Shown in pieces: positions 21,051 through 62,826 of a stretch of DNA of 64,000 nt (positions within the stretch are counted from its first letter, which is position 1; the number at the start of each line of letters is the position of its first letter). Position numbers and translations under genes: made by a program. The notes below the pieces were generated by a model. That model saw only the letters and a list, made by a program, of their open reading frames with translations, had not been told where the DNA came from and ran no database searches. Source of the DNA: Thermoanaerobaculia bacterium (GTDB lineage Bacteria > Acidobacteriota > Thermoanaerobaculia > UBA5066 > Gp7-AA6). The stretch is taken from positions 124,585 through 188,584 of the forward strand of contig DASXTI010000062.1 of assembly GCA_036505535.1 (NCBI GenBank). The letters run 5' to 3'.

Positions 21051-21120
21051 CCTCTGGTTCCTGGTTCTTCCTCTCATGACGACTCCTCCACCAGAAACCA
21101 GGGACCAGAAACCAGGAACC
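21051..21120. repeat. CTGGTT/AACCAG heptamer inverted array (hairpin) enclosing the DUF1684 start codon
   Basis: ggttcctggtt (21056-21066) pairs with aaccaggaacc (21110-21120). The right arm (accagaa accaggg accagaa accagga) encodes PETRDQKPGT of the downstream gene. Confidence 0.7.
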
Positions 21121-21948
21121 TCCATCTCTCGCGCATATATCGCCGAGATCGAGGCATGGCGCGCGAAACGCCTGGAGCGACTGCGCGCCGAAGACGGCTG
21201 GCCAACCGTCGTCGGTCTCTTCTGGCTGGAGGAGGGGGAAAACCCGGTCGGCAGCGCCTCCGGCAATCGAATCGTTCTGCCCGCGGGGAAGGCGCCTCCC
21301 GTCCTGGGCTCGATCGATCTCTCGCATGGTCGGGTGAGCCTTCGTGTCCGTCCCGGCGCGGACGTGCACGTAGATGGCAAGAGGGTCAAACAGGCGACGC
21401 TCTCCTCCGACGCGGACGGCCAACCGACGGTCGTGACCTATGGAACGCTTCGCTTCTATCTGATCGAGCGCGTGGGCCGTCTGGCCGTGCGCGTCAAGGA
21501 CAGCGCGAGCGAGGCGCGGCGCCGGTTCCACGGCCTCGACTCCTTTCCGATCGACCCGGCCTGGCGCCTCGAGGCGCGGTTCGAGCCCTACGATCCGCCG
21601 AATTCGATAGCTGTCCCCAACGTGCTCGGCGCCGTCGACTCGGAGAGATCGCCTGGGGCGATCGTCTTCGAGTACGGCGGCAAAGCGTACCGGCTCGACT
21701 CCGTGCTGGAGAAAGGCGAGATCGACTATTTCGTCATCTTCGGCGACCGCACGAATGGCGCGGAGACCTATGGAGCGGGACGCTTTCTCTACGTCTCCCC
21801 GCCCGCCGGCGGAAAGACCGTCATCGACTTCAACAAGGCCTACAACCCTCCCTGCGTCTTCACGCCCTATGCGACATGCCCGCTGCCGCCTCTGCAGAAC
21901 AAACTGCCGATTCGGGTCGAGGCCGGAGAGAAGGCGTATGAGCATTAG
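21076..21948 (+). CDS. DUF1684 domain protein
   Basis: Conserved DUF1684-like N-terminus (AYIAEIEAWRAKRLERLRAEDGWPTVVGLFWLEEG) and C-terminal CxF..Y..CPLPP motif. Confidence 0.75.
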   Translation: MTTPPPETRDQKPGTSISRAYIAEIEAWRAKRLERLRAEDGWPTVVGLFWLEEGENPVGSASGNRIVLPAGKAPPVLGSIDLSHGRVSLRVRPGADVHVDGKRVKQATLSSDADGQPTVVTYGTLRFYLIERVGRLAVRVKDSASEARRRFHGLDSFPIDPAWRLEARFEPYDPPNSIAVPNVLGAVDSERSPGAIVFEYGGKAYRLDSVLEKGEIDYFVIFGDRTNGAETYGAGRFLYVSPPAGGKTVIDFNKAYNPPCVFTPYATCPLPPLQNKLPIRVEAGEKAYEH

Positions 21949-22079
21949 TCGACAGTCGACAGTCGACAGTCGACAGTTGGGAGACGCAAGGCGGGCGAAA
22001 CATATAAGTAACTACTTATATGTTAGGCACCTCCGGCTATCGACTGTTGACTCTAGACTGTTGACTCTTGCCTCCCAAC
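21949..22079. repeat. composite convergent-terminator element: 4x GTCGACA tandem, AT palindrome CATATAAGTA-ac-TACTTATATG (22001-22022), inverted GTCAACAG copies
   Basis: Tandem tcgacag x4 at 21949-21977. Downstream revcomp partner cgactgttgactctagactgttgactc, with ttgggag/ctcccaa outer stem. AT palindrome copy 2 sits in the loop. Confidence 0.8.
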
Positions 22080-22661
22080 TCACTTCAGCGCGTCCAGCAG
22101 CTCTTTCAAGATCTTTGCGGTCGCTCCCCAGATGACGTAGGGGCCGTAATGGTAGAAGAGCGTCAGCTCTTCCCGATCGGGGAGGCACCGGCGCTCGAGC
22201 GCCTTTGGATCGAGCAGCGATGGAATTGGAACCTCGATCACCTCCGCAATTTCCGCCTCTGCCGGGCGGAAGGAGTACGGATGGGGGATCGCGGCCACGA
22301 AAGGCTCGACGTAAAAGTCGGTCACGGTGGTCAGCGGGGAGAGCGCTCCCAGCAACCGCACGTCGCCCGGCGTGAGGCCGAGCTCTTCTTCGGCTTCCCG
22401 CAATGCGGTCGACAGCAACGTGTCGTCCCCCTCCTCCTCGCCCCCTCCGGGGAAAGAGATCTGGCCTCTGTGGTGCTCGACCGTCTCCGTTCGGCGCGTC
22501 AGCAGGACGCGAAGGACGGTGTCGCGCACGAAGAGCGGTACGAGGACGCCGGCCCGGCGCTCCCCCTGCGCCCGCACGGGATTGCCCAAGTCCCGCGCCT
22601 CCAGTCGTGCGCGAATCTCCTCCATCCAGGAAATGGCCAGTGGTTCCGCGTCAAGAGGCAC
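22080..22661 (-). CDS. NUDIX hydrolase, CoA pyrophosphatase-like
   Basis: Nudix box [29 protein letters not shown]. NudL-like LLTRR motif. Confidence 0.8.
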
Positions 22662-23770
22662 GGGCGCGGCTTCCCTCAGCGGCGGACCGCAGAAACGCCT
22701 CGATGAAGGGGGTTAGATCCCCGTCGAGGACGCGATCGGTGTCGCCGGTCTCGAACCCCGTGCGGTGATCTTTTACCATCCGATAGGGATGGAGAACATA
22801 CGAGCGGATCTGGCTTCCCCACTCGATCGACTTCTTGTCGCCGACGCGTTTCTCCTCCTCGGCCCGCCGCTCATCGAGAGCGCGCTGGTAGAGGCGAGCT
22901 CTCAGAACGCGCATCGCCATCTCGCGGTTGCGGCCCTGACTCCGTTCGTTCTGGCACGTCACGACGATTCCGGTGGGCAGGTGCGTCAAGCGAACCGCGG
23001 AATCGGTCACATTCACGTGCTGACCGCCGGCCCCGCTGGATCGGTACGTGTCGACGCGAAGGTCCTTGTCGTCGATCTCGATCTCGATGTCCTCGTCGAT
23101 TTCGGGAGACACGAACACCGATGCGAACGAGGTATGGCGCCGCTGGGCGGAGTCGAAGGGCGATATCCGGACGAGCCGGTGGACCCCCATTTCCCCCTTC
23201 AAATACCCGTAGGCGTGGTCGCCGACGACGTGGAGAGTGGCGCTCTTCAACCCCGCTTCTTCGCCGTCCTGCCGCTCGATCAATTCGGCCTTCCAGCCGC
23301 GGGACTCCGCAAAGCGCATATACATGCGGAGCAACATCTCAGCCCAGTCCTGCGACTCCGTTCCACCGGCGCCCGCGTGAATCATCAGCCATGTGTTCTT
23401 GGCATCGTCGGGAGACCCCATCTTGACGGCGAGCTCGAGCTCGTCGGCGAAGGTTCCGGCCGCGGCCAGCGTGGCGCGGGCATCGCCTTCCGCCGGCTCC
23501 CCTTCTCGAAGAAGTTCGGAAAGAGCTTCGAGCTCGCTGAGGAGCTCGTCGACGCGACCGGCGGTCTCGAACTTCCTCTCGACGCCGCGCGTCTCGCGCA
23601 GAACCTCCTGCGCTTCCTCCGGACGGGACCAGAAATCGGCCGCGGAGGCCTTTTCCTTCAGAAGCGAGAGCGCGCTCCGCGCCGCATCCAGATCAAAGGT
23701 AGCCCCGAAGCGCGGTCAGGCGCTCCGAGGCGGCCTTCAGGGAGGCGAGAAGATCGTCGCGTTCGGTCAT
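22651..23770 (-). CDS. prfB: peptide chain release factor 2 with programmed +1 ribosomal frameshift
   Basis: ORF-1 [25 protein letters not shown] ends at in-frame TGA. The +1 frame continues [15 protein letters not shown]... into track ORF 22651..23421 ([24 protein letters not shown] motif). Internal SD-like GGGGC before CTT TGA T. Start ATG overlaps lnt stop (ATGA). Confidence 0.85.
23690..23700 (-). promoter_or_regulatory. prfB +1 frameshift site (CTT TGA T on coding strand)
   Basis: Plus strand atcaaaggtag = minus strand CTA CCT TTG AT. Codon 26 is UGA preceded by CUU, as in the canonical RF2 autoregulatory site. Confidence 0.8.
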
Positions 23771-29002: not shown

Positions 29003-29905
29003 GTGCGCATCCGACCGACAGAAGCGATCCATTTCGCGGCCCTGGGAGTTCTGACGACGCTGGCGGTCCTCGTGCGCGGCCGGCTCGCCGATCCCTCGGG
29101 ACTGCTCCGCCGCTATGGCGCTCTGGCCGTCTGCCTTCTGGTCATCGCAGCGCTCGCGCGCCGCATCGACCGCCTCCCCGCCGCGCTTCAGATTCTGGTC
29201 GACTTCTACCCTGCCGCGCTTCTGCCTATCCTGTTCAACACACTCGAGCCGTTGATCGAAGCGTCGCGCGGAGACGCGCGCGACCGGATACTGATTGCCG
29301 CCGACCGAGCCATCTTCGGCGTCGACGTCACCGTCTGGCTACAGCGGCTGGCACACCCGTGGTTGAGCGACCTGATGTTCGTCTTCTACGCGACCTACTA
29401 CTTCATCGCGCTCACGCTCGGCGCGATCCTCTGGGCGCGGAACCGGGCAACCGCCCGCCGCTTCATCTTCACGCTCATGGTCGTCTATTACGTCTCGTAC
29501 GCCGGTTATTTCACGATTCCCGCGCACGGGCCCCGGTCGGCGCAGTCCTCCGAGTACACCGTGTCGCTCACGACGACGCCCGTCTCGAATGCGATCTCCG
29601 AAACGATCGACAGCCTGGAGAAGACGAAGTTCGACGTCTTTCCTTCGGGTCACACGATGGTGGCCGTGGCCGTGCTCCTGGTGGCCTGGAGGCAGGCACG
29701 CCGCGCTTTCTGGCTCCTGCTGCCGGTCGCCTCCGGCCTCGTCATATCGACGGTTTACTGCCGGTATCACTATGCCGTCGACGTGATCGCCGGGACGCTG
29801 CTGGCGTTCGTGACGGTACCCATCGGAGACTGGGTCTACGACAAACTCGCGGGGAGGTTTGATTTCGTAGGGGCGGGGGTGAACGCCGGCCGTTGGCCGG
29901 CGTAG
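29003..29905 (+). CDS. PAP2-superfamily integral membrane protein (phosphatase/headgroup transferase-like)
   Basis: Six predicted TM helices. PAP2 motifs PSGHT and CRYHYAVDV (H..D). GTG start. Confidence 0.7.
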   Translation: MRIRPTEAIHFAALGVLTTLAVLVRGRLADPSGLLRRYGALAVCLLVIAALARRIDRLPAALQILVDFYPAALLPILFNTLEPLIEASRGDARDRILIAADRAIFGVDVTVWLQRLAHPWLSDLMFVFYATYYFIALTLGAILWARNRATARRFIFTLMVVYYVSYAGYFTIPAHGPRSAQSSEYTVSLTTTPVSNAISETIDSLEKTKFDVFPSGHTMVAVAVLLVAWRQARRAFWLLLPVASGLVISTVYCRYHYAVDVIAGTLLAFVTVPIGDWVYDKLAGRFDFVGAGVNAGRWPA

Positions 29906-30047
29906 CCTACTGTCGTGGGCCTGCCGCTGGTGGTCGGCTTGTCCCCGCTCGCGGGCGGCCGCGAGCCGACCGCCGGAGTTAAACCCTCAGCAGTAGGCAA
30001 CGCCGGCGTTAGCCGGCGGTCACGGCCGCCCCTCCAGCGGTAGGAGC
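29906..30047. terminator. GC-rich nested stem-loops between convergent PAP2 and GNAT genes
   Basis: gcctactg...cagtaggc outer pair, ggtcggc..gctcgcg ggcggc cgcgagc..gccgacc inner hairpin, cgccggcgttagccggcg second hairpin. No U-tract. Confidence 0.5.
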
Positions 30048-31196
30048 CTACAGCGCCTTTTCGTAGATCCGGTAGGTCTTGTAGAGCCGCCCTCCCCACA
30101 GCTTGACGGCTCCGATGACGGGTTCGTTGTCCTCCAGGAGCCATGAGACCTCGGCGCCCGTGTAGCCTTTCTTGAGCAGGAATCGGAGCGAGTCGGCCAT
30201 CATGATCGACTGGATGCCCCGCAGCCGGTAGGGGCGCTTGATCCCGAGCGTCACCACCCTCACCGTCTTGATCTTCCGGACCGCGAGGATGAACTTCAGC
30301 CAGCCGAATGGGAGGAGCCGGCCGCCGGTGGGAGCGATCGCCCGGTTGTAGTCCGGCAACATGAGCATGAAGGCGATAGGCTCGAAGGAGCCGTCGGAGC
30401 GCTTCGCCTCGGCCAACCAGAGCAATTCCTCAACGAGGAGGGGCTTCAAACGCTTAGCCATGAAATCCATCTCTTCGGAAGTCATCGGAACGAAGCCCCA
30501 GTTCTTCTCCCATGCTTCGTTGTAAACCTCCCGGATCTTGGGGAGGTCCGTCGCGAGACCTCCCTTGGAAACGTTGCGCACGAGGATCTCCGTCTCGCGC
30601 TTGCGGAATCGTTCGGCGACCCGCGATAGCCGATCGAGCGGTTTCTCCTCGAGCGGGAACCAGTAGGCGAGCAGGTCCTTGGCCTTCCGAAGGCCCTGCC
30701 CCTCGATCAAGGGGATGTAGTACCGCGGGTTGTAGGTCGTCATCAGGACGGGCGGGGAATCGAAGCCATCCACGAGCAGGCCGGCCTCGTCGTTCAAAGT
30801 CGGGTTGGTCGGCCCTCGAAGAACCTTCATCTTCCGCTCGCGCCCCCAGACCGACGCGGCGTCGAACAATTTGGCCGCGACATCGGGATCGTCGGCCGAC
30901 TCGAAGAATCCGAAAAACGCGGTCTTCTCGGCGTGAAAGGAATTGTGGCTGCGATCCAGGATCGCCGCGATACGGCCGACGTCTTTCCCGCCGCGGCGCG
31001 ACGCGAACAGTTGCATCTCACCATGCCGGAAGAACGGATTCTCGTCCTGGAAGACCTTGGCGACGTCCGATCGCAGAGGCGGGATCCAGTTCGGATCTCC
31101 CGCGTAGATGCCTTCGGCCACGTCGAAGAATCGCGAGAGGTCAGCCCGTCGGCGGCCGAGCCGCTCGATGACGACAGGCTCTCCGGCCGGGCTCAT
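30048..31196 (-). CDS. GNAT-fold N-acyltransferase of the ~380-aa FemAB/BioF2-associated (Acetyltransf_6-like) type
   Basis: Size and architecture (two tandem GNAT-like halves). Conserved YNEAWEKNWGFVPMTSEE segment. Lies directly downstream of the alpha-oxoamine synthase. Start at MSPAGEPVVIERLG (31196). Confidence 0.65.
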   Translation of the reverse strand: MSPAGEPVVIERLGRRRADLSRFFDVAEGIYAGDPNWIPPLRSDVAKVFQDENPFFRHGEMQLFASRRGGKDVGRIAAILDRSHNSFHAEKTAFFGFFESADDPDVAAKLFDAASVWGRERKMKVLRGPTNPTLNDEAGLLVDGFDSPPVLMTTYNPRYYIPLIEGQGLRKAKDLLAYWFPLEEKPLDRLSRVAERFRKRETEILVRNVSKGGLATDLPKIREVYNEAWEKNWGFVPMTSEEMDFMAKRLKPLLVEELLWLAEAKRSDGSFEPIAFMLMLPDYNRAIAPTGGRLLPFGWLKFILAVRKIKTVRVVTLGIKRPYRLRGIQSIMMADSLRFLLKKGYTGAEVSWLLEDNEPVIGAVKLWGGRLYKTYRIYEKAL

Positions 31197-31224
31197 CGCT
31201 CCTCCGCCGATTCGCCGCGGGCCT

Positions 31225-32466
31225 TTACGCCTGGCCGGTCCGGACGAGGCCGACCTCCCGGCCGACCTTCTCGAAGGCATCGAGCGCCCGCGTCAACTGC
31301 TCGCTCGTGTGCGTCGCCATCAGCGAGGTCCGGATGAGAGCCCGGCCCGGGGGCGTGGCGGGAGAAAGGACGCAGTTGACGAAGACGCCTTCTTCCTGCA
31401 GCCGATGCACCAGCCGGAGCGCCGTCAGATCTTCTCCGACGACGACAGGGACGACCGGTGTGCGCGATTCACCCGTGTCGAGCCCCAGAGAACGCAAACC
31501 CTCCGAGAAGAACCGGGTGTTCTCCCAGAGCTTCTCGCGGCGTTGCGGCTCTTTGTCCATGATCTCGATGGTGGCCAGCGCGGCGGCCGCGGACGCCGGC
31601 GGCGGCGCCGCCGAAAAGATGAGCGTTCTCGCGCGGTGTTTGATGTAGTCGATGACCGTCGAGTTGCCGGCGATGAAACCGCCGACCGAGGCCATCGATT
31701 TCGAAAACGTTCCCATGATCAGGTCGATCTCGTGCTCGAGGCCGAAGTGCTCGGCCGTCCCGCGACCCGTCCTGCCGAGGACGCCGATGCCGTGGGCGTC
31801 GTCGACCATGAGTCCGGCTGAGAACTCGCGGGCGGCGGAGAGGATTTCCGGAAGCGGTGCGACGTCTCCCTCCATCGAGAAGACGCCGTCGATGACGACG
31901 AGCCGGCCCTTGGCTTCGATATCGTTTCGCATCTGGCGGCGCAGATCCGCCGGATCGTTGTGCTTGAATTTCTTGACGACGCCGAAGGACAGCCGCGCGC
32001 CGTCGATGATGCAGGCGTGATCCTGTTTGTCCAGGTAGACGGTGTCTCCCTTGCCCGCCAGACAAGAGATCGCGCCGAGATTGACCTGGAAGCCCGTGGA
32101 AAACGTTACGGCCGCCTCCTGCCGCATGAACTCGGCCAGTCGCTCCTCCAACCTCACATGGAGGTCGAGGGTGCCGTTGAGAAAGCGGCTTCCAGCGCAG
32201 CCGGATCCATATTTCCGAATCGCCTCGATGGCCGCTTCCTTTACACGGGGATCGTTGGTCAAGCCGAGGTAGTTGTTCGATCCGAGCATGATCATCCGCC
32301 GGCCGCCGAGGATGACCTCCGGATCCTGGGCCGAATCGATGACGCGGAAGAATGAATAGAAACCGGTCTGCCGCACGCGCGTGGGTTCCTGGTACCGGTA
32401 ACATTTTTCGAAGACCGGAGGGGTTCCCACCGCCTCCGCCTTCAGCGCCCGGGCGACCTTACTCAT
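31225..32466 (-). CDS. alpha-oxoamine synthase, serine palmitoyltransferase-like (PLP-dependent)
   Basis: Block IMLGSNNYLGLTNDPRVKEAAIEAIRKYGSGCAGSRFLNGTLDLHVRLEERLAEF...FSTGFQVNLGAISCLAGKGDTVYLDKQDHACIIDG aligns closely to bacterial SPT (ILLGTYNYMGMTFDP...GSGTNGSRMLNGTFHDH...STGYMANLG...LDADSHASIYDG). PLP lysine context GTFSKS. RBS GGGAG 7 nt before ATG 32466. Confidence 0.85.
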   Translation of the reverse strand: MSKVARALKAEAVGTPPVFEKCYRYQEPTRVRQTGFYSFFRVIDSAQDPEVILGGRRMIMLGSNNYLGLTNDPRVKEAAIEAIRKYGSGCAGSRFLNGTLDLHVRLEERLAEFMRQEAAVTFSTGFQVNLGAISCLAGKGDTVYLDKQDHACIIDGARLSFGVVKKFKHNDPADLRRQMRNDIEAKGRLVVIDGVFSMEGDVAPLPEILSAAREFSAGLMVDDAHGIGVLGRTGRGTAEHFGLEHEIDLIMGTFSKSMASVGGFIAGNSTVIDYIKHRARTLIFSAAPPPASAAAALATIEIMDKEPQRREKLWENTRFFSEGLRSLGLDTGESRTPVVPVVVGEDLTALRLVHRLQEEGVFVNCVLSPATPPGRALIRTSLMATHTSEQLTRALDAFEKVGREVGLVRTGQA

Positions 32467-39064: not shown

Positions 39065-39829
39065 ATGCCGGCCATCGAGTCGCCGTCCAATCCTCTGATC
39101 CGGGAGATCGTGCGCCGCCTCGAAGAGAAGACGCATCTCTTACTCGAGGGGGAGAAAACGATACTGGACGCCGTGGGGGCGGGGATCCCGCTCGATTGTG
39201 TCCTCTACGACGCGAGTATTCGCCCGGGCCGGCTCGCGGCGCTGACTTCCGCTCACCCTCGCCTCGTTTCGCGCGCGGTGCTCGAGCGCCTTGCCGACTC
39301 GCACACGCCGCAACACCTTCTGGCCGTGGCCCGCCGACGCGACGTTCCCGTCGCGGAGATCCTGGCGCGCCCCGGACCCATCGTGTTCCTCTTCGGCATT
39401 CAGGATCCCGGCAACCTCGGCGCTATCGTCCGGGTTGCGGAGGCGGCAGGCGGCGCCGGGGTCCTGGGGGCTCCCGGAACGGCCGATTTCTTTCATCCAC
39501 GCGCCATTCGCGCAAGCGCCGGCAGCGCCCTCCGCATACCCGTCTCCGGGCGCGTCTCTTTCGAGCCCTTCGCGGCGGACGCGAAGGCCGCGAGCCGTCC
39601 CATTTGCGGCGCCGTGGCGGAGGGAGGCGAAGATCCCTTCGAAGGGCCTCTCTCACCGGCTTCCGTCCTCGTCGTCGGCGCCGAGGGCTTCGGCCTTCCC
39701 GCCGGCGCGTATCGATACCTCGACCGGAAGCTGACGATCCCGATGCGAGAGCCTGTCGACTCGCTCAACGCCGCCGTGGCAGTGGCGTTGCTGCTGTACT
39801 CGCCGGCGCTGCGTAAACAGGAGAATTGA
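39065..39829 (+). CDS. SpoU/TrmH-family RNA 2'-O-methyltransferase
   Basis: SPOUT motifs (VFLFGIQDPGNLGAIVRVAEAAG, LVVGAEGFGL, DSLNAAVAVALLLY). Confidence 0.8.
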   Translation: MPAIESPSNPLIREIVRRLEEKTHLLLEGEKTILDAVGAGIPLDCVLYDASIRPGRLAALTSAHPRLVSRAVLERLADSHTPQHLLAVARRRDVPVAEILARPGPIVFLFGIQDPGNLGAIVRVAEAAGGAGVLGAPGTADFFHPRAIRASAGSALRIPVSGRVSFEPFAADAKAASRPICGAVAEGGEDPFEGPLSPASVLVVGAEGFGLPAGAYRYLDRKLTIPMREPVDSLNAAVAVALLLYSPALRKQEN

Positions 39830-39909
39830 AGATTGATGATTGAAGATTAACGATTGAAGGTCAATGGTCTCGCCCCAATCGACAATCGTCAATCGGCAAT
39901 CGTCAATTC
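39823..39909. repeat. GATTG-core heptamer inverted array (5x NGATTGA then 5x CAATCGN)
   Basis: gaattga agattga tgattga agattaa cgattga ...loop... caatcga caatcgt caatcgg caatcgt caattc. Starts within the trmH stop codon. Confidence 0.8.
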
Positions 39910-40019
39910 TTCTTCCTGCCCTTCCGTTTCTTTTCGCCCGGTCTCGTCTTGAGCCGTGGAGCCTGATAGACCCTCTTCGGCGCCACGACCTTCTTCTGCC
40001 GGTTTCCGATTCCTTTCAT
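39903..40019 (-). CDS. candidate 38-aa Lys/Arg-rich small protein (MKGIGNRQKKVVAPKRVYQAPRLKTRPGEKKRKGRKKN)
   Basis: ATG overlaps AMMECR1 stop as ATGA. GAGGTG SD 9 nt upstream. Terminator-like heptamer hairpin immediately downstream. Confidence 0.3.
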   Translation of the reverse strand: MKGIGNRQKKVVAPKRVYQAPRLKTRPGEKKRKGRKKN

Positions 40020-40573
40020 TCCGAGAACACCTCTGCGCGAAACGCCCAGAGACGCGTTTCCGGATGCGCCCACGCCCGCGGGGGGAGGCCCGCCTTTTTC
40101 GATAGCTCCTGGAGAAAACGCTCTCGATCGAAGCCCCACTCCGTGGCGACCTGGGGCAGGAGCAAGCCTCTCCGCCCGAATGCCTCGATGATCAACCCGT
40201 CGCTACCGATCTCGATCTCCCCGAGCCCTTCGATGGACCGCGGCGCCGTTAAGACCGAGATTTCGATCGAGCACTCTTCCAGCTCGCTGGCTTCGAGCGG
40301 CGCGAAGCGCGGGTCCTCGAAAGCCGCGCGCAGCGCGTATTCGGAGATGACCCGCGTCAAGTCCCCCGCGGGCGCCAGCGTCCCGATGCAGCCCCGGAGC
40401 TGGCCGCGCTTCCGAAGCGTCACGAAGAGCCCGCGAGGCGTGCCGAAGGTCTCGGCGCGGTCGGAAGACAACCGGGGCGCGGGCTGACCCCGGAAATGCG
40501 CCTCGAGCGTGCCGCGGGCCAAACGCAGCAGGTCGGCGCGAGCCTCGTCGGAGAGCGGGGCGTCCGAGCTCAC
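40016..40573 (-). CDS. AMMECR1-domain protein
   Basis: Conserved LRGCIG and LLLPQVA motifs of the AMMECR1 family. Confidence 0.85.
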   Translation of the reverse strand: MSSDAPLSDEARADLLRLARGTLEAHFRGQPAPRLSSDRAETFGTPRGLFVTLRKRGQLRGCIGTLAPAGDLTRVISEYALRAAFEDPRFAPLEASELEECSIEISVLTAPRSIEGLGEIEIGSDGLIIEAFGRRGLLLPQVATEWGFDRERFLQELSKKAGLPPRAWAHPETRLWAFRAEVFSE

Positions 40574-41202: not shown

Positions 41203-41332
41203 CACGGACTGGAGCCTGCCTGCCACGGACTCGCGTCCTCCGGTTGGCGAAACGCCGATCTCATCGTATCCTTCCCGCCGTCTTCCTTGAGGCGAGCCCG
41301 CCCAGGCGAAGCCACAAGGACAGGAGAACACG

Positions 41333-42391: not shown

Positions 42392-42395
42392 AAGG

Positions 42396-42493
42396 GAATT
42401 GGCGATTGCCGATTGGTGATTGGTGATTGCCGATAGACACGGTCGATCGTCTCAATCACAAATCACAAATCACCAATCTCAAATCTCCAATCC
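42396..42493. repeat. GATTG-core heptamer inverted array (5x GATTGNN then 6x NNNAATC)
   Basis: attggc gattgcc gattggt gattggt gattgcc ...loop... ctcaatc acaaatc acaaatc accaatc tcaaatc tccaatc. Confidence 0.8.
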
Positions 42494-42520
42494 CCTAGGT
42501 GCCGGGCTCCGCCTGCTACC

Positions 42521-43438: not shown

Positions 43439-43448
43439 CCATACCGAA

Positions 43449-43515
43449 GGTTTCTGGTTCCTGGTCTCTGGTTACTGGTTGAAGAGAGAGAACCAGAAAC
43501 CAGAAACAAGAAACC
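43449..43515. repeat. CTGGTT-core heptamer inverted array (4x NNNCTGG then 3x AACCAGA)
   Basis: tttctgg ttcctgg tctctgg ttactgg tt ...gaagagagag... aaccaga aaccaga aacaaga aacc. Between convergent genes. Confidence 0.8.
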
Positions 43516-43519
43516 CTTT

Positions 43520-44455
43520 TCAGGCGGAGACCACGTAGCCGCCGCTCTTGGCGTCCTTCTTCATCGTGACGATGCCGTGCCGCTCGGCATCCTCGAGCAG
43601 CTCCGAAAAGGACTTGTAGCCGTAGTACGACTCGTTGAAGTAGGGCTGCTTGCGCTGCATCGTCTGTTTGATCATCGAGCCCCAGATGACATCGTAGTTC
43701 TCGCGCCGCAGAGCCTGGATGGAGTCGAGGACGAGCCGGAAGACTTCCTGCTTTTTCTTCGGCAGGTTGTCGATCGAGGGCATGGCCCGCGTCTCGCGGA
43801 CGAGATCCTCGTAGAAGATGAACTCGTCGCAGTTGGAGATGAGCAGGTTGGACGTGGAGTTCTTCACGCCGACGCCGATGACGCTCTTGTCGTTCTCCTT
43901 CAGCTTGGAGACCAGCGGCGAGAAATCCGAATCGCCCGAGCAGATCACGAACGTGGTGATGTGCCCTTTGGAGGCGACCAAGTCCATGGCGTCCACGACC
44001 ATGCGTATGTCGGCCGAGTTCTTGGCCGCATAGTTGCGCTGGGGGATGTCCACGAGCTCGATCGCGGCCTCGTGAAACTCGCGCTTGTATTCGGAGTATC
44101 GCGTCCAGTCTGCGTAGGCCTTCTTGTATACGATGCGTCCCTTCTCGATGAGTCGCTGGAGCACCAGGTGGATGTCGAACTTCTTGTACTGCGCGTCCCG
44201 AACCCCGAGGGCGATGTTCTCGAAGTCGATGAACAGAGAGAGCCGCTGGTCAACCGAGGTCCGCGCGGGAGGAACCGGCGCCACGCTCATGGGAGCCGTC
44301 GCCGAGCTCATGGGGGGGAGCACCGGCGGCGGTGCCTCCTCGGCGGGAATTGGAAATGCCTTGTGCCGCCGGGCGCCGCCTCGGCGACGTCGGGCGGGCT
44401 TCCTGTCCGTCTCCGCGGTCTCGGCCGCGGGAAACGGAACGGTATCGTCGATCAT
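43520..44455 (-). CDS. NYN-domain ribonuclease-like protein with C-terminal OST-HTH/LOTUS domain
   Basis: NYN core (LFIDFENI, DIHLVLQ, VICSGDSDFSPLV). C-terminal LOTUS-like helical domain (FRLVLDSIQALRR...YGYKSFSELLEDAERHGIV). Confidence 0.8.
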   Translation of the reverse strand: MIDDTVPFPAAETAETDRKPARRRRGGARRHKAFPIPAEEAPPPVLPPMSSATAPMSVAPVPPARTSVDQRLSLFIDFENIALGVRDAQYKKFDIHLVLQRLIEKGRIVYKKAYADWTRYSEYKREFHEAAIELVDIPQRNYAAKNSADIRMVVDAMDLVASKGHITTFVICSGDSDFSPLVSKLKENDKSVIGVGVKNSTSNLLISNCDEFIFYEDLVRETRAMPSIDNLPKKKQEVFRLVLDSIQALRRENYDVIWGSMIKQTMQRKQPYFNESYYGYKSFSELLEDAERHGIVTMKKDAKSGGYVVSA

Positions 44456-47573: not shown

Positions 47574-48280
47574 AGAACGGCCGGCCGCGCGTCGCCGTGC
47601 TCATTCCTGTCTTCAACGAGCGCGAATCCCTCCCGCTCGTCGTCGCCGCGATTCCGAAGGCGGTCGTCGACGAGATCGTCGTCGTGGACAACGGCTCGAC
47701 CGACGGCACCGACGCGATTGCCCGGGATCTTCCGGTACGCCTGGTGCGGGAGCGACGGCGGGGCTACGGCAGCGCGTGCCTCGCCGGCGTCGAGGCGTTG
47801 GGGGGGACGCCCCCGGACGTGCTGGTCTTTCTAGACGGCGATTTTTCGGATCACCCCGACGAGATGCCGCGCCTGCTCGAGGCGATCGCGGAGGGCGCGG
47901 ACCTTGTCATCGGATCCCGGACTGCCGGCCGGCGGGAACGCGGAGCGCTGGCGCCCCAGGCGCGCTTCGGAAACGTGCTCGCCTGCCTCTTGATCCGGCT
48001 CCTGTACGGCTACCGGTACACGGACCTGGGTCCCTTCCGTGCGATCCGCTGGGAGGCCTACCGGCGGCTCGGCATGGAGGACACCGATTTCGGCTGGACC
48101 TCTGAAATGCAGGTCAAGGCCGTGCGCCGCGGGTTGCGGGTTGCGGAGGTTCCCGTTTCCTATCGGCGGCGCGTGGGCGTATCGAAGATCACGGGCACGC
48201 TCGCCGGAAGCCTCCGTGCGGGCGCCAAGATCCTGTGGACGATCGTCCGATACGGCATTGGGAGGTCGCGCAATATATAA
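47570..48280 (+). CDS. family-2 glycosyltransferase (polyprenol-phosphate sugar transferase-like)
   Basis: VLIPVFNERE, VVDNGSTDGT, FLDGDFSD (DxD) motifs. N-terminal 2/3 of track ORF 46076..48280 is shadow. Confidence 0.85.
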   Translation: MKNGRPRVAVLIPVFNERESLPLVVAAIPKAVVDEIVVVDNGSTDGTDAIARDLPVRLVRERRRGYGSACLAGVEALGGTPPDVLVFLDGDFSDHPDEMPRLLEAIAEGADLVIGSRTAGRRERGALAPQARFGNVLACLLIRLLYGYRYTDLGPFRAIRWEAYRRLGMEDTDFGWTSEMQVKAVRRGLRVAEVPVSYRRRVGVSKITGTLAGSLRAGAKILWTIVRYGIGRSRNI

Positions 48281-48296
48281 GCATTCACTTATATAT
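48273..48296. repeat. AT-rich palindrome ATATATAAG-cattca-CTTATATAT (copy 3) containing both convergent stop codons
   Basis: TAA of the GT2 gene (48278-48280) and TAA of the minus-strand ABM-like gene (48289-48291) lie in opposite arms. Confidence 0.8.
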
Positions 48297-48600
48297 CAGG
48301 GCCGATGAGCACCTCGTAATGCGTCACGTTCGGCTCGAGCTCCAAAAGGAAGGCGGTATCCTCCGGATAATAGCGCGCGCGCTCGATCTCCTCGCCGGCA
48401 AACGTCCGGATCGCGTCGGCCGACTCCCAGAGCGAGACGAGCAGAAAGTGTGCGACCTCCCCCTCCCGCCGCTGGAGCACGTAGACGCCACGGTTTCCGG
48501 GCGTCGCTCGGTAGTCGGGGACCCCGGTCTTCTCCAGATAGCGAGCGTAGTCGGCGGCTTTGGCCACGGGCACCGCGCCGTGCCACAAGCGAGCGATCAT
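48289..48600 (-). CDS. small ABM-like (antibiotic biosynthesis monooxygenase fold) protein
   Basis: ~100-aa ferredoxin-like pattern (MIARLWHGAV...FLLVSLWESADAIRTFAGEE). ATGA overlap with ybgC-like gene. The upstream 100 codons were rejected. Confidence 0.5.
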   Translation of the reverse strand: MIARLWHGAVPVAKAADYARYLEKTGVPDYRATPGNRGVYVLQRREGEVAHFLLVSLWESADAIRTFAGEEIERARYYPEDTAFLLELEPNVTHYEVLIGPDI

Positions 48601-49043
48601 GGAGCCTCCCATCGGTTCACGCCTCGGAACGACTCGAGCGTCCGGAGGACGGTGGCATCCCCGCGCCGGGGTCGGCCGTCCGGATCGGTGAAGACGTGGC
48701 GGCTGGCGCCGTCGGCGAGGAGATCGCCGGCCGGATTGCGGATTTCGTAGGCGAACGTGCATCCCCGGCTCGAAAGCTCCCTCATGCGCGTGAGGATCCG
48801 GATTAAGTCGTCGTAGCTCGACGTCCGCCGGAACGCGCACTCCACACGGGTGACCGGAATCAATAGACCCGATCGCTCCATCTCCGCGTACGGCGCCCCC
48901 GCCGCCCGGCACCACTCGGTGCGCCCGATCTCGAACCAGATCAAATAGTGGGCGTGATAGACGATTCCCATCTGGTCCGTTTCGGAGTAGCGCACGCGCA
49001 GGTTCGTCTCGACGACGCGCGAGACTTCGGGCTCATGTCTCAT
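48597..49043 (-). CDS. YbgC/4HBT-family acyl-CoA thioesterase
   Basis: Hotdog fold with ETDQMGIVYHAHYLIWFE motif. Confidence 0.8.
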   Translation of the reverse strand: MRHEPEVSRVVETNLRVRYSETDQMGIVYHAHYLIWFEIGRTEWCRAAGAPYAEMERSGLLIPVTRVECAFRRTSSYDDLIRILTRMRELSSRGCTFAYEIRNPAGDLLADGASRHVFTDPDGRPRRGDATVLRTLESFRGVNRWEAP

Positions 49044-49074
49044 GTCTCAGGTCCAAGGCTCCGTCAAGCGCGAG

Positions 49075-57232: not shown

Positions 57233-57973
57233 ATGCTGGCACTCGCCTTTCAGCCCGTCACCTCAGAAAACCTCCCCGGCCAGTCCTCGATCCTCTCCGC
57301 CTTCGGCGAGACGGGGACGACCGCGCGAGTCGTCCTGGGCATCTTGCTGCTGTTCTCTTTTATCTCCTGGGTGATCATTTTCGCCAAATTCATTCGGCTC
57401 CGGAGGGTCTCGCGCCAGTCGGCGAAGTTCGTCTCGTTCTTTCGGAAATCCAAGCGCTTCTCGGAGGTCAATACCTTCGCCGGGGATCTGGCCGACACGC
57501 CTTTGACGACCCTCTTCAAGGCGGGCTACGCAGAGCTCGACGCCCAGGTGAAGGCCAATCGCGCCGACGACGCTCCGACCACCGGCGGGGCACAGGGCAA
57601 GCTCTTGATCAAGAACATTTCTGGAATCGAGCGGGCTCTGGAGCGCGCGATCGGCGTGGAGATGTCGCGATTGACGCGACACATGACCTTCCTCGCCACG
57701 ACGGCGGCGGCCTGCCCGTTCATCGGTCTGTTCGGCACTGTCTGGGGAATTATGCAATCTTTTCGGGCAATTGGCCAGACCGGATCGACATCGATCGCGG
57801 CGGTCGCGCCCGGAATCTCGGAGGCCCTCATCAACACGGCCGCCGGCCTCGCGGCCGCGATTCCGGCGCTGATCTTCTATAACTACTTCATGGGAAAGGT
57901 CCGGGAACAGCGCGCGGGAATGGAGGACTTCTCCCTAGAGTTCATCAATCTGGCCGAGCGGAACTTTACGTAG
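57233..57973 (+). CDS. tolQ: Tol-Pal system protein TolQ
   Basis: MotA/TolQ/ExbB family with 3 TM helices. Synteny with tolR-tolA-tolB-pal-cpoB. Confidence 0.85.
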   Translation: MLALAFQPVTSENLPGQSSILSAFGETGTTARVVLGILLLFSFISWVIIFAKFIRLRRVSRQSAKFVSFFRKSKRFSEVNTFAGDLADTPLTTLFKAGYAELDAQVKANRADDAPTTGGAQGKLLIKNISGIERALERAIGVEMSRLTRHMTFLATTAAACPFIGLFGTVWGIMQSFRAIGQTGSTSIAAVAPGISEALINTAAGLAAAIPALIFYNYFMGKVREQRAGMEDFSLEFINLAERNFT

Positions 57974-57976
57974 GGC

Positions 57977-58068
57977 GCTCGTGAGTCGTAAATCATGGGT
58001 CATGGGTCATGAGGAGGTAAGCAATGAAGGACGGCTCTCGACTCACGACCCATAACTCACGACCCTCC
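57977..58068. repeat. CGTGAGT/CATGGGT heptamer inverted array between tolQ and tolR, containing SD plus 15-codon mini-ORF
   Basis: cgtgagt cgtaaat catgggt catgggt catgagg ...loop... revcomp partner ctcgactcacgacccataactcacgaccctcc. GAGGAGG (58011-58017) pairs with CCTCC (58064-58068). Mini-ORF ATG 58024..TAA 58071 encodes MKDGSRLTTHNSRPS. Confidence 0.75.
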
Positions 58069-58072
58069 TAAA

Positions 58073-58501
58073 ATGGCCTTCCAGCGTCAAACCGGCGACC
58101 CGTTCGACCACCTCGCGGACATCAACGTCACGCCTCTGGTCGATGTCATTCTCGTGCTGCTCATCATCTTCATGGTCACCGCGCCCATGCTTCACCAGGG
58201 CATCTCCGTCGCTCTTCCGAAGACCGCCACCACCAATCTCCGTTCCACCGTCGAAGACCCCATCGTCCTTTCGATCTCTCGCGACGGCCTCTACTACATC
58301 AACGAAACCCCCGTCGCCCGCGGGCTGCTCAAGGAGCGGCTGCGCGCCATTCTTCGCGGGCGCAGGGAGAAAGCCGTTCTGCTCAAGGCGGATCGGGGAC
58401 TCTCCTACGGCACTGTCATCGAGACCCTCGATCTGCTCAATCGGATGGGGATCGAAAGCCTCGGTCTGGTGACGGAGACGTCGGGGTCTTCCCGGAAGTG
58501 A
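58073..58501 (+). CDS. tolR: Tol-Pal system protein TolR
   Basis: ExbD/TolR family with single TM (VTPLVDVILVLLIIFMVT). No SD of its own; start 1 nt after mini-ORF stop (TAAAATG). Confidence 0.85.
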   Translation: MAFQRQTGDPFDHLADINVTPLVDVILVLLIIFMVTAPMLHQGISVALPKTATTNLRSTVEDPIVLSISRDGLYYINETPVARGLLKERLRAILRGRREKAVLLKADRGLSYGTVIETLDLLNRMGIESLGLVTETSGSSRK

Positions 58502-60905: not shown

Positions 60906-61015
60906 CGCGCGAAATCGGATTCGGACTGGGGTTTTCGCAAACTCTTTGCTATATTGACTTTCTGAGCGGTACCCCTTGATTTGCGCGTCTCCGCTCCGCG
61001 ACGAAGGAGTACGGA

Positions 61016-61582: not shown

Positions 61583-61587
61583 CCTTG

Positions 61588-62418
61588 ACCGCCTCGCAGC
61601 GTCTCGGACTCGCCGGCCTCCTGGTGGCGGCGCTTGTGGCGGGCGCCGCCTGCGTTTCCTCGGACGACATCGAGGGTCTGCACCGGCAGATGAACGACAT
61701 CCAGAAGCAGATCCAGGCGGTCGAGAAGAAGTCTTCGAGCAAGGAGGAGGTCGAGAAGCTCAACCAGAACGTGGCCACGCAGACCCAGCAGTTGCTCAAG
61801 TCCAACGCCGACACGGCGGTCAAGTTGGGCGAGCTGACGACCAAGATGGAGCAGCTCGAGGCCAAGCTCGAAGACACCAACCGCCGGCTCTCTCAGCTCT
61901 CCCAGCAGATTGCGGAGACGCAGGGCGACCTGCTCCGGCTCCGCAACGCCGGTGGCGGTGGTTCCGGCTCACCCGGCCCGGCGCCCGCTTCCCCTCCCTC
62001 CGGCGGAGCGCCCCGCCCGTCTCAGAGCGCACCGTCTCCAACCGAGCTCTATGACACGGCCTACGGCGACTACGCCAAAGGGCGTTACGCGCTCGCCATC
62101 CAGGGCTTCGAGGACTATCTGGCGAGCTACCCCTCGACGGACCTCTCCGATAACGCCCAGTACTGGATCGGCGAGTCACACTTCGCGCAGAAGAAATACC
62201 AGGACGCGATCGCGGACTTCGAGAAGCTTCTCAAGCAGTGGCCCGCGAGCGACAAGGCCGCCGCCGCGTTGTTGAAGAAGGGATACGCGCTGCTCGAGCT
62301 CGGCCAGAAAGCGGAAGCCGTCGTCCAGCTCCAGTACGCCATCCACGAGTTCCCGACCTCCGAGGAAGCGCGGCTGGCTCGCGCCAAGCTGAAGTCGATC
62401 GGAGTGGAAACGAAATAA
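61588..62418 (+). CDS. cpoB: CpoB/YbgF (Tol-Pal system coiled-coil + TPR protein)
   Basis: Signal sequence, coiled-coil (QKQIQAVEKK...LEAKLEDTNRRLSQL). C-terminal TPR (YALAIQGFEDYLASYP...YWIGESHF). Start is uncertain: TTG 61588 after the pal stop; track ORF start 61330 overlaps pal. Confidence 0.7.
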   Translation, partial: TASQRLGLAGLLVAALVAGAACVSSDDIEGLHRQMNDIQKQIQAVEKKSSSKEEVEKLNQNVATQTQQLLKSNADTAVKLGELTTKMEQLEAKLEDTNRRLSQLSQQIAETQGDLLRLRNAGGGGSGSPGPAPASPPSGGAPRPSQSAPSPTELYDTAYGDYAKGRYALAIQGFEDYLASYPSTDLSDNAQYWIGESHFAQKKYQDAIADFEKLLKQWPASDKAAAALLKKGYALLELGQKAEAVVQLQYAIHEFPTSEEARLARAKLKSIGVETK

Positions 62419-62482
62419 GCGTAAGACGTGAGAGGTAAGACGTAAGACGGAGCGGGTCTCGTCTCACGTTTTGCGTCACGAC
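62419..62482. repeat. GTAAGAC-core heptamer inverted array downstream of cpoB
   Basis: gtaagac gtgagag gtaagac gtaagac gg ...agcgg... gtctcgtctcacgttttgcgtcacgac. Confidence 0.75.
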
Positions 62483-62518
62483 ACCGAGAAACGATCAACA
62501 AGGAGAAAGCTCATTCCC

Positions 62519-62773
62519 ATGGCCAACATCAAGTCCGCCGAGAAGCGGATCCGCACGTCTGGCAAGAAGCGCACACGCAACAAGGCTCGTGTCTCGCGCC
62601 TTCGGACCGCGATCAAGAAATACGGGCAGACCGATCCGGCGAGGAAGGCCGATGCCCTTGCGGGAACCCACGCGGAGATCGACCGCGCACTCCGCAAAGG
62701 CGTGATCCACCGCAACGCCGCGGCCCGGTACAAGAGCCGGCTGGCGAAGAAGGCGGCAGTCAGTAGTCAGTAG
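62519..62773 (+). CDS. rpsT: 30S ribosomal protein S20
   Basis: MANIKSAEKRIRTSGKKRTRNKA... typical bS20 N-terminus. AAGGAGAAAG SD. Confidence 0.9.
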   Translation: MANIKSAEKRIRTSGKKRTRNKARVSRLRTAIKKYGQTDPARKADALAGTHAEIDRALRKGVIHRNAAARYKSRLAKKAAVSSQ

Positions 62774-62826
62774 TCAGTCGTCGGTAGTCGTGAGCCTCTC
62801 ACGACGACTACCAACTACCAACCACC
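62761..62826. terminator. CAGTAGT-core heptamer hairpin overlapping the rpsT 3' end
   Basis: cagtagt cagtagt cagtcgt cggtagt cgtgag cc ctcacgacgactaccaactaccaaccacc. Tight stem gtcgtgag/ctcacgac with 2-nt loop. The repeat encodes the last residues (VSSQ) and the TAG stop of S20. Confidence 0.75.

Follow-up and report, generated by a model that had tools for sequence, protein, structure and literature searches.

Genes in a 66% G+C soil genome of the Thermoanaerobaculia (Acidobacteriota) are followed by long hairpins whose arms are tandem arrays of a seven-nucleotide unit. The question raised by the 64,000-nucleotide stretch analysed here (the window) is what such elements are, and whether they end transcripts. 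The original prediction described them as a genome-specific, terminator-like and previously uncharacterised class. In our reading they are probably STRR-like palindromic heptanucleotide simple-sequence repeats, made by slippage, intergenic in location and tolerated through self-folding.

Heptamer hairpins in the window

Direct reading confirmed one plan at all eight loci proposed: a unit of about 7 nt repeated two to six times, a spacer, and an array of the reverse-complement unit opposite. The listed cores were correct. So was the absence of a U-tract, which none of the eight hairpins has, the nearest approach being one TTTT after hairpin 5. The stated three to six units per arm need correcting in three arms: hairpin 1 has only about 2.5 units on its 5' side, and hairpins 6 and 7 are degenerate on their 3' side.

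Tandem Repeats Finder placed period-7 or period-14 arrays at 13 positions of the window: 21090-21120, 21947-21977, 22042-22068, 39825-39859, 39876-39907, 42398-42434, 42450-42492, 43449-43480, 43491-43515, 57993-58011, 62416-62449, 62758-62789 and 62807-62826. A lag-7 self-match scan (array threshold ≥16/21) found 15 period-7 arrays, against a mean of 0.36 and a maximum of 2 in second-order Markov shuffles, confirming that the architecture is non-random. Other periods from 4 to 15 gave 0-3 arrays each, save 14 (the double unit) with 9. Among non-triplet periods, 7 alone is strongly over-represented in the window. Each locus folded into a single hairpin of 58-130 nt with dG of -28 to -69 kcal/mol and z of -2.2 to -9.2, so the check on RNA-fold energetics found all eight stable. 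None of 200 shuffles folded as well for seven hairpins, and 2/200 did so for the tolQ-tolR hairpin.

All eight hairpins lie directly 3' of at least one stop codon, four of them between convergent genes. Hairpin 1 (21043..21119; dG -31.8, z -3.5) separates a TPR gene (stop 21026-21028) from a DUF1684 gene, with arms of CTGGTTC x~2.5 (5', 21053-21070) and ACCAGRA x4.4 (3', 21090-21120). Its 3' arm is coding, because the DUF1684 ATG (21076) falls in the loop. Hairpin 2 (21942..22071; dG -68.8, z -9.2) occupies the gap where the DUF1684 (+) and NUDIX (-) genes converge; its 5' arm is a perfect array of AGTCGAC x4.4 (21947-21977), its 3' arm spans 22034-22076 and its loop holds an AT-rich palindrome of its own (21999-22025). 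Hairpin 3 (39819..39913; core GATTGNN, arms 39825-39859 and 39876-39907; dG -37.5, z -4.9) is flanked convergently by a SpoU/TrmH-type methylase gene (+) and a conserved 38-codon basic ORF (39903-40019, -). Hairpin 4 (42393..42496; dG -45.6, z -6.9) has the same GATTGNN core, with arms at 42398-42434 and 42450-42492, and sits between co-directional genes (41333-42391 and 42521-43438). The second of these converges on an NYN-domain gene (43520-44455, -) across hairpin 5 (43449..43515; core CTGGTTN, arms 43449-43480 and 43491-43515; dG -29.8, z -3.6).

Hairpin 6 (57979..58062; cores GTGAGTC and CATGGGT; dG -32.3, z -2.2) occupies the gap between tolQ (stop 57971-57973) and tolR (ATG 58073) within the tol-pal operon. 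Hairpin 7 (62419..62476; dG -28.1, z -4.0) lies between a ybgF/cpoB-like gene (stop 62416-62418) and rpsT (ATG 62519); its 5' arm is GTAAGAC x5 (62416-62449) and its 3' arm (62456-62476) is shorter. Hairpin 8 (62752..62837; core CAGTAGT, arms 62758-62789 and 62807-62837; dG -33.5, z -3.4) lies between the convergent genes rpsT (+) and lptE (-). Arms had been said to begin in or near stop codons, and they do: array 2 opens with the DUF1684 stop TAG as its first triplet, both genes flanking hairpin 3 terminate as AATTGA, one within each arm, and array 8 encodes the last five rpsT codons (AVSSQ), stop codon included. Two arrays are single. One (49025-49061; CTCATGT x3.1) is unpaired and overlaps the start codon of a minus-strand gene (48597-49043); the other (48118-48147) is intragenic and probably due to chance.

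Spread and lability among relatives

The family is not specific to this genome. The same architecture was found across 78 Thermoanaerobaculia/Acidobacteriota genomes and in an independent set of 80 soil metagenome contigs (0.50 Mb). In the 1.49 Mb formed by the window and the 78 relatives, which are phylogenetically non-independent, intergenic or gene-edge arrays numbered 121 for period 7, 40 for period 14 and 20 for period 21; period 6 gave 26, period 8 gave 18 and other non-multiples of 3 at most 6. Deep within coding sequence there were only 8 period-7 arrays, despite 87% of this DNA being coding. The independent metagenome loci replicated this pattern of period and location. An inverted partner lay within 160 nt for 82/129 arrays, a number that exceeds the 95th percentile in both the reverse and the complement control, and these pairs make up 51 hairpins of 49-144 nt. 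About two thirds of arrays are thus inverted pairs and about one third single and non-palindromic.

Orthologous gaps differ widely between relatives. Between tolQ and tolR, lengths run from 3 nt (TAGGTG) up to a hairpin of about 150 nt, with cores that include GTGAGGC, GAGAGTT, AAACGTG, AGTCGAC, GACGGTA, CAGTTCT and others. Gaps of the tolQ-tolR and rpsT-lptE type measure 0-25 nt in many relatives and lack a hairpin. The rpsT-lptE and tolR-tolA gaps likewise hold a hairpin or not depending on the relative, with differing cores, and the counterparts of hairpins 3-5 are equally labile in presence and core. Across relatives, cores vary and so does presence. Judged from these comparisons, the arrays are, in behaviour, repeat insertions gained and lost.

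A slippage-type generator, as had been suggested, is supported by exact 7-nt, one-unit indels between orthologous hairpins. Locus L054 has one AACTCTC unit fewer than L058, and L082 one GTAAGGG unit more than L045, L056 and L074, in each case in one arm only. Slippage is not fast, since no unit-number polymorphism was seen in same-species contigs from five other samples (99.8-100% identical). Of the 8 polymorphic sites within the species, 2 are located in hairpin arms, pointing to weak constraint there.

Termination, coupling and selection at gene junctions

Among the 25 hairpins of the tol cluster, the median distance is 3 nt from the stop to the helix and 10 nt from the helix to the next start, which leaves a median of about 13 nt of the gap outside the helix. 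They occur at both tolQ-tolR and tolR-tolA, inside the operon. The location originally given, at gene 3' ends, thus holds with respect to the stop codon; hairpin 6, being intra-operonic, does not mark a transcript end.

Could the hairpins be factor-independent terminators of an unusual type, with a long stem, no U-tract and bidirectional action between convergent genes? As with intrinsic (Rho-independent) terminators, a very stable hairpin follows the stop directly and is at times common to convergent genes. Divergent gaps hold at most 4/51 hairpins (gene calls checked), in keeping with such a role, and canonical hairpin plus T-run terminators are not clearly enriched at 40-60 kb of the window (13 vs 11.9 expected) and only modestly so at 20-40 kb (26 vs 13.2 expected). 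We nevertheless consider termination unlikely. Besides lacking a U-tract, the stems have periodically mismatched arms of 25-45 nt, unlike the 5-14 bp of known intrinsic terminators; they stand within operons, flush with the next start, and are not conserved at orthologous sites, the stop and start being 3 nt apart in hairpin-free relatives at tol gaps. Efficient termination is not expected in the tol gaps because the hairpin fills the space from stop to start, leaving no promoter room for the essential downstream gene. On this gap geometry, from which we infer read-through, the hairpins there cannot be efficient terminators, and the label terminator-like is not supported.

That same geometry invites a role as functional RNA spacers, in which the fold joins stop to start for coupling or re-initiation over about 100 nt, and a stalled terminating ribosome tunes the upstream gene. 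In the tolQ-tolR gaps, no Shine-Dalgarno sequence separates the hairpin from the start codon, and arm polarity is conserved, the G-richer arm being the 5' arm in 42/51 hairpins and 14/16 core families. In E. coli, REP elements up to about 15 nt from the stop codon are reported to reduce translation (Liang, Rudd and Deutscher 2015). In cyanobacteria, 7-bp STRR hairpins lie between the co-transcribed genes hupS and hupL and are proposed to stabilise transcripts or couple translation (PMC2670836). We find this explanation rather improbable all the same, as the same junctions are hairpin-free in many relatives and the arms, where 2/8 of the within-species polymorphic sites fall, show no evidence that pairing in the sense RNA is selected. 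Compensatory changes were not seen, and unit position 3 is often mismatched. The antisense fold was more stable than the sense fold in 26/32 co-directional gaps. G.T and A.C mismatches numbered 30 vs 68 in plus-sense gaps and 16 vs 9 in minus-sense gaps, an asymmetry that agrees with DNA-strand composition skew in 74-80 of 80 loci; it tracks that skew and not the direction of transcription. The arm polarity, an enrichment of stop triplets in the cores (87/143 vs about 62 expected) and the abutment on stop codons do hint at some selection, as a purely neutral model predicts none of these.

Enterobacterial REP/BIME elements are imperfect extragenic palindromes found at gene 3' ends and within operons, transcribed and thought to stabilise upstream mRNA. 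Pseudomonas REPINs are also extragenic palindromes and vary in presence between relatives (PMC3116915). The acidobacterial elements resemble both in being dispersed and variably present, and sites that are not orthologous sometimes share a core (the window has two hairpins each with CTGGTT and GATTG, and AAACCTG, AAATCAC and ACTGAGG appear in several genomes), as miniature mobile palindromes of REPIN or MITE type, spread by a transposase, would. We think such an origin very unlikely. REPs, which RAYT transposases spread, belong to one conserved family of sequences about 35 nt long, whereas the present elements are internally periodic, have no common sequence (84 distinct canonical cores among 143 arrays) and change by 7-nt steps in a single arm. 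Neither the two GATTG nor the two CTGGTT hairpins of the window have loop, terminus or flank sequence in common, target-site duplications were not seen, and the single arrays are not palindromic. Most remote is the idea of DNA or RNA binding arrays for a heptad-phase-reading factor, for example a protein acting in termination or mRNA stability, also raised at the outset: the units do keep a strict 7-nt phase, with a conserved core of 5-6 nt and 1-2 variable positions, but 84 cores are too diverse for a single recognition specificity, and propagated 14- or 21-nt double or triple units account for the phase-locked variable positions.

Probable STRR-like heptanucleotide palindromes

If the elements are STRR-like repeats, single 7-nt units would be gained and lost by slipped-strand mispairing in replication, as the one-unit indels suggest. 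Since 7 is not divisible by 3, arrays would be purged from coding DNA and would accumulate between genes, typically at or a few bases past a stop codon. Slippage by itself makes no inverted partner, and mirrored unit order, a weak test, reached p≤0.05 in 8/53 hairpins; both count against this origin. The second arm may have come from an initial short inverted repeat or a fold-back duplication. Once paired, the arms would drift and slip largely independently. In the transcript, an inverted pair would form a long imperfect stem-loop, a structurally self-contained insertion that keeps the upstream stop and downstream start spatially near. This would explain tolerance even in translationally coupled operons such as tolQRA.

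Precedents exist, so the class is not new. Heptanucleotides are the commonest long simple repeat in most bacterial genomes surveyed, according to Mrazek (2007) as cited in PMC4679880 and PMC4692102. Cyanobacterial STRRs are likewise dispersed, intergenic, hairpin-capable tandem arrays of a 7-bp unit, with several cores per genome and positions between co-transcribed genes, and their proposed roles include transcript stability, coupling and pausing (PMC2670836, PMC4692102). The present set differs in its host group and base composition, in its far larger number of cores and in the dominance of the inverted hairpin form; its 5'-G-rich polarity and stop-codon abutment are documented here, and no such statement was found for STRRs. 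Xanthomonas, also of high G+C, carries mostly intergenic GGGAATC arrays, including 70-75 inverted pairs per genome, two convergent arrays on opposite strands being capable of a stem-loop or cruciform (Rehm et al. 2015, PMC4692102). From species to species, an array there usually stays single or stays an inverted pair, with variation in length and sequence (PMC4692102). That family has in essence a single G-rich core that could form G-quadruplexes; the acidobacterial cores are numerous, mostly lack G-tracts, and change between orthologous sites. The TAACTGA repeats of Beggiatoaceae and cyanobacteria are abundant intergenic heptamers with stop triplets near gene boundaries, but they have a single core, are almost all direct (1 inverted in 170 sets) and sit just 5' of start codons rather than in hairpins that follow a stop (PMC4679880).

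Any role of the acidobacterial hairpins would probably be modulatory and REP-like, with no essential function. As candidates, they may shield the upstream mRNA against 3' exonucleases, make the ribosome pause at the stop, or keep coupling intact. The polarity of the arms (5' G-rich, 3' C-rich) might hide C-rich RNA from Rho until the partner arm is made. By analogy with the heptamer-repeat hairpins already known in cyanobacteria and Xanthomonas, this set is their soil-acidobacterial counterpart.

Periodicity and distribution of the heptamer arrays

Direct reading and a repeat scan confirmed that each of the eight predicted loci comprises a tandem run of a ~7-nt unit (an array), a spacer and the reverse-complement unit. 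The paired arrays, here called hairpins 1 to 8, lie at 21043-21119, 21942-22071, 39819-39913, 42393-42496, 43449-43515, 57979-58062, 62419-62476 and 62752-62837, and at every one of these loci Tandem Repeats Finder reported arrays of period 7 or 14. When the window was compared with itself at a lag of 7 (at least 16 of 21 positions matching), 15 period-7 arrays were found, against 0.36 expected from second-order Markov shuffles (maximum 2). Other periods from 4 to 15 gave 0-3 arrays each, except the double unit of 14 (9 arrays). Two additional arrays in the window are single: CTCATGT x3 at 49025-49061, unpaired and overlapping a start codon, and one within a gene at 48118-48147 that is probably due to chance. 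Positions 1-21000 held no heptamer array despite several gaps longer than 150 nt, and all eight hairpins fall within 21-63 kb.

The family had been described as genome-specific. When the window was combined with the tol loci of 78 relatives (1.49 Mb), 129 period-7 arrays were found, against 5-22 for periods 5, 8, 10, 11 and 13. Deep coding DNA makes up 87% of this set yet held only 8 of the 129, roughly the chance expectation; the other 121 are dispersed and predominantly intergenic. In intergenic and gene-edge DNA, counts were 121 for period 7, 40 for period 14 and 20 for period 21, with 26 for period 6, 18 for period 8 and at most 6 for each remaining non-multiple of 3. Eighty metagenome loci recruited independently through the NYN protein (0.50 Mb) contained 22 period-7 arrays against 3-11 for the remaining non-triplet periods, and included clean hairpins with still different cores (canonical unit sequences). 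Since the excess recurs in relatives and in independent metagenome loci, the family is not genome-specific. TolB of the window is 85% identical to that of soil genomes labelled Thermoanaerobaculia/Acidobacteriota, and exact matches to the window came solely from short soil-metagenome contigs.

Hairpin structure and gene context

All eight window hairpins are predicted to fold as single hairpins (ΔG -28 to -69 kcal/mol, z -2.2 to -9.2), in line with the structure originally proposed. None of 200 shuffles matched the fold stability of seven of them, and 2 of 200 matched that of the tolQ-tolR hairpin. Across the comparative set, 82 of 129 arrays were paired with an inverted one no more than 160 nt away, a number that exceeds the 95th percentile of reverse and complement controls. 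These form 51 hairpins of 49-144 nt (ΔG -20 to -77), whose arms of 25-45 nt carry periodic mismatches and have a G+C content of 54% against 66% for the genome. About one third of the set are unpaired single arrays; the arrays are not uniformly hairpins, nor are they uniformly at 3' ends.

The cores named in the original prediction were correct, with six core types among the eight window hairpins and 84 canonical cores among 143 arrays. The counts across the comparative set, those that follow included, are not phylogenetically independent. The G-richer arm was the 5' arm in 42 of 51 hairpins and 14 of 16 core families, and stop triplets read inward 213 times and outward 124 times. A stop triplet was present in 87 of 143 cores (~62 expected), which is an enrichment and not a universal feature; a rule that every core contains a stop codon was dropped. 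G-quadruplex potential of the Xanthomonas kind does not apply to the window cores. A single metagenome contig among those fetched for comparison (L133) has long hairpins of GGGGGTC/GACCCCC units at 7763-7891 and 11093-11195, a G-tract core that recalls the heptamers with which Xanthomonas and Nostoc form G-quadruplexes. Rfam returned no match at gathering thresholds across the whole window, and at E ≤ 1 only a spurious mir-3914 match in 39700-43650.

Rough gene calls and Pfam matches place four of the eight window hairpins between convergent genes: hairpin 2 (DUF1684 and NUDIX), hairpin 3 (a SpoU/TrmH-type methylase and a 38-codon basic ORF), hairpin 5 (the gene at 42521-43438 and an NYN-domain gene) and hairpin 8 (rpsT and lptE). 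The others lie between co-directional genes, namely a TPR gene and the DUF1684 gene (hairpin 1), two genes with no Pfam match (hairpin 4), tolQ and tolR of one operon (hairpin 6), and a ybgF/cpoB-like gene and rpsT (hairpin 7). As predicted, arms can begin within stop or last codons: AATTGA of each hairpin 3 arm supplies the stop codon of the adjoining gene, and array 8 encodes the last five residues and the stop of rpsT. Hairpin 1 carries the sole in-frame DUF1684 start codon in its loop, and the DUF1684 N-terminus is accordingly encoded by its 3' arm.

Two small ORFs adjoin these structures. The very basic 38-codon ORF on the minus strand at 39903-40019 (MKGIGNRQKKVVAPKRVYQAPRLKTRPGEKKRKGRKKN), convergent with the SpoU/TrmH-type gene, is conserved in relatives, and its N-terminal coding sequence lies downstream of that gene in two comparison loci (L092, L094). 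It is likely to be a real small protein. At 58010-58075, in hairpin 6, a strong Shine-Dalgarno sequence (AGGAGG) is followed by an ATG at 58024 that opens a 15-codon ORF (MKDGSRLTTHNSRPS). This ORF crosses the 3' arm, and a single nucleotide separates its TAA (58069-58071) from the tolR ATG. It may be due to chance, as the orthologous loops of relatives have no consistent ORF of this kind.

Two other inverted repeats were noted. Three copies of a 24-bp AT-rich palindrome (ATATATAAG-N6-CTTATATAT) lie in the window, at 4855-4880, 21999-22025 and 48272-48297, with one copy in the hairpin 2 loop and one between divergently called genes at ~4.86 kb. Its core, TATAAG-N6-CTTATA, has an expectation of 0 in shuffles and was absent from all 170 fetched loci; it looks like a candidate regulator operator or AT-rich promoter element specific to this genome. 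At 29896-30007, between convergent genes at 29003-29905 (+) and 30048-31280 (-), lies a long non-periodic inverted repeat with 56-nt arms, 71% complementarity and no spacer, which is not built from heptamers.

Crude gene calls assigned the 51 hairpins to 32 co-directional, 12 convergent and 7 divergent gaps, although on inspection at most ~4 of the 7 divergent calls hold. Gap geometry was measured on 25 tol-cluster hairpins whose neighbouring genes on both sides were placed by homology. The median distance is 3 nt from the stop codon to the helix and 10 nt from the helix to the next start; the helix lies nearer the stop in 20 cases and nearer the start in 4. Several relatives also have unpaired arrays (e.g. 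GGAACCC/GAGACCC) shortly before a gene start, at a site that is orthologous among them (L005 3743-3785, L018 3846-3879, L021 3912-3946, L023 16235-16263).

Turnover at orthologous sites

All relatives keep the gene order tolQ-tolR-tolA-tolB-pal-ybgF-rpsT-(lptE). Within it, the tolQ-tolR gap is 3 nt long at its shortest (TAG GTG), is ~24 nt with no repeat in other cases and reaches 90-150 nt where it is made almost entirely of heptamer hairpin. Its core is CATGGGT/GTGAGTC in the window and lineage-dependent in relatives (GTGAGGC/GTAAGGC, GAGAGTT, AAACGTG, AGTCGAC, GACGGTA, CAGTTCT or GTAGTCT), with close relatives having the core and even the loop sequence in common. At rpsT-lptE the two stops overlap in some genomes and are separated by heptamer hairpins or unrelated repeats in others, several genomes have hairpins in the tolR-tolA gap, and counterparts of hairpins 3-5 are mostly absent or have other cores. 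Orthologous gaps with no hairpin or with other cores indicate that these are gained-and-lost insertions and not conserved signals.

Two sequences were observed in gaps lacking heptamer hairpins. The tolQ-tolR spacer (20-40 nt) of hairpin-less relatives has a conserved CGGTGTC(C/T) a few bases past the tolQ stop (L003-L031 and others, ~8.6-8.7 kb in locus coordinates), which also survives at the 5' border of some gaps that do have a hairpin (L005, L012, L044, L064). In the rpsT-lptE gap, several relatives have a distinct hairpin family (CCCCTCACCC..GCCCTCTCCCC ... GGGGAGAGGG), found at ~13.1-13.4 kb in locus coordinates of L023, L029, L025, L068, L077, L079, L006 and L026. It is apparently a REP-like repeat common to several genomes.

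Whole units are gained and lost, as seen in two clean 7-nt indels between orthologous hairpins of hand-picked close pairs, the only informative comparisons. One AACTCTC unit is missing from the 3' arm in L054 relative to L058, with the 5' arm unchanged, and L082 has one additional GTAAGGG unit in its 5' arm relative to L045, L056 and L074, with the 3' arm unchanged. An all-pairs survey of indel lengths in orthologous gaps gave no 7-nt peak, the alignments of divergent gaps being too noisy. Variant units are homogenised within an arm (e.g. GCCTGAC x3) even at the cost of mismatch between arms. A fold-back origin of the second arm would predict mirrored unit variants, and mirrored order showed just a weak excess (p ≤ 0.05 in 8 of 53 hairpins). 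Ten contigs of the same species from five other samples, 99.8-100% identical, showed zero indels against the window, so this is not a fast contingency locus. Their SNPs fall at 8 distinct sites, 2 of them in hairpin arms (62469 in hairpin 7 and 62829 in hairpin 8); at 62829 five other contigs match the unit consensus CGACTNC, from which the A of the window deviates. Taken together, these observations point to change by slippage of units within one arm at a time, at a pace visible between species, with weak constraint on pairing.

The mismatches themselves are asymmetric. In co-directional gaps the antisense fold was the more stable in 26 of 32 (Wilcoxon p = 0.003). Wobble-compatible transition mismatches numbered 30 sense and 68 antisense in plus-sense gaps and 16 sense and 9 antisense in minus-sense gaps, placing the excess always on the minus DNA strand. 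This agrees with the regional composition skew, the plus strand being C-rich in 74 of 80 loci and A-rich in all 80. Selection on the sense RNA through G·U pairs was ruled out since the asymmetry is opposite to its prediction and follows the DNA-strand skew. The mismatches thus look like strand-biased mutational decay.

Relation to known heptamer repeats and rival explanations

According to Mrazek 2007, as cited in PMC4679880 and PMC4692102, heptanucleotide repeats are the commonest long simple repeats in most surveyed bacterial genomes, and a polymerase-related slippage preference has been proposed for them. Xanthomonas has ~180 GGGAATC arrays, and in 70-75 cases two convergent, opposite-strand arrays are potential stem-loops; position is conserved from species to species while length varies (PMC4692102). 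Beggiatoaceae carry TAACTGA direct repeats (PMC4679880). In cyanobacteria, STRRs (short tandemly repeated repetitive sequences), usually of 7 bp, form hairpins, for example at hupS-hupL, that may raise transcript stability or give translational coupling (PMC2670836). Our literature search found no account of such repeats for Acidobacteria. The arrays described here resemble this class in their tandem head-to-tail 7-nt units, over-represented relative to other unit lengths, in their scatter over many mainly intergenic loci and in changing by whole units, and resemble the hupS-hupL STRRs and Xanthomonas pairs in being inverted, hairpin-capable and intergenic. Unlike STRR1-3 or GGGAATC, which are small genome-wide core sets, they have a far larger core repertoire. 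The observation behind the original prediction therefore stands and part of its interpretation is supported, but its proposal of an uncharacterised class of 3'-end element is not, as the arrays have the descriptive features of the STRR-type class apart from the core repertoire.

We consider it probable that these are STRR-like palindromic heptanucleotide repeats. Unit slippage would generate the arrays, and since 7 cannot be divided by 3 they would be kept out of coding DNA. They would be tolerated between genes, even in operons, because the inverted arrangement folds on itself and holds stop and start close. Any function, including effects on mRNA stability, Rho or ribosomes, would be modulatory and REP-like.

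Their location past stop codons and high fold stability would suit unusual transcription terminators, but we regard this as unlikely. An intrinsic terminator has a short G+C-rich stem (~5-14 bp) and a small loop, whereas the arms here are 25-45 nt, imperfect and 54% G+C. In agreement with the original report, no U-tract follows any of the eight window stems, with 0-5 T in the 12 nt 3' of each and a TTTT run at hairpin 5 alone. Hairpins also occur within tolQRA, in both the tolQ-tolR and tolR-tolA gaps of relatives, leave no promoter room before the next gene and are dispensable in relatives. On present evidence from sequence, the hairpins in co-directional gaps do not appear to be efficient terminators, and read-through would be expected.

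Rather improbable is a reading of the hairpins as functional folded spacers for coupling, to which the stop-to-start geometry would lend itself and which their gain and loss at orthologous gaps does not favour. A more speculative and somewhat less credible proposal adds a sequence-independent generator working in 7-nt steps, for instance the replicase itself or some dedicated activity, with the hairpins retained as such spacers. The G-rich-first polarity could then hide C-rich RNA from Rho, and the helix base could set the stop beside the start, so that ribosomes could re-initiate across a ~100-nt structure in shunt-like coupling.

A mobile-element origin is very improbable and was rejected: same-core copies have no common loops or flanks. 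There is no common sequence beyond the locus-specific heptamer, in contrast to the conserved genome-wide palindrome of REP/REPIN elements. Nor do the arrays have the terminal inverted repeats with target-site duplication of a MITE; the flanks are the neighbouring stop and start codons, and no duplicated flank was found at the compared gaps. Least credible of all is that the arrays are sites for a heptad-reading factor.

Read as slippage-derived STRR-like repeats, the arrays bring a new phylum into a poorly understood class of heptamer repeats, with an unusual wealth of cores and clean material for comparison. They bear on why many bacteria prefer heptamers as the long simple-repeat unit and on the role of STRR-type hairpins. 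Here many unrelated cores share one architecture at orthologous sites comparable across dozens of genomes, so the 7-nt period and hairpin form can be separated from any particular sequence. For annotation, heptamer hairpins should not be labelled terminators, and a stop codon, the last residues (rpsT) or the first residues (DUF1684) of a protein may come from an array. Should the arm polarity and the juxtaposition of stop and start be functional, they would be relevant to Rho avoidance and to translational coupling across structured spacers. If a 7-nt generator does operate, the Thermoanaerobaculia would be a natural system for asking why 7 nt is favoured in bacteria.
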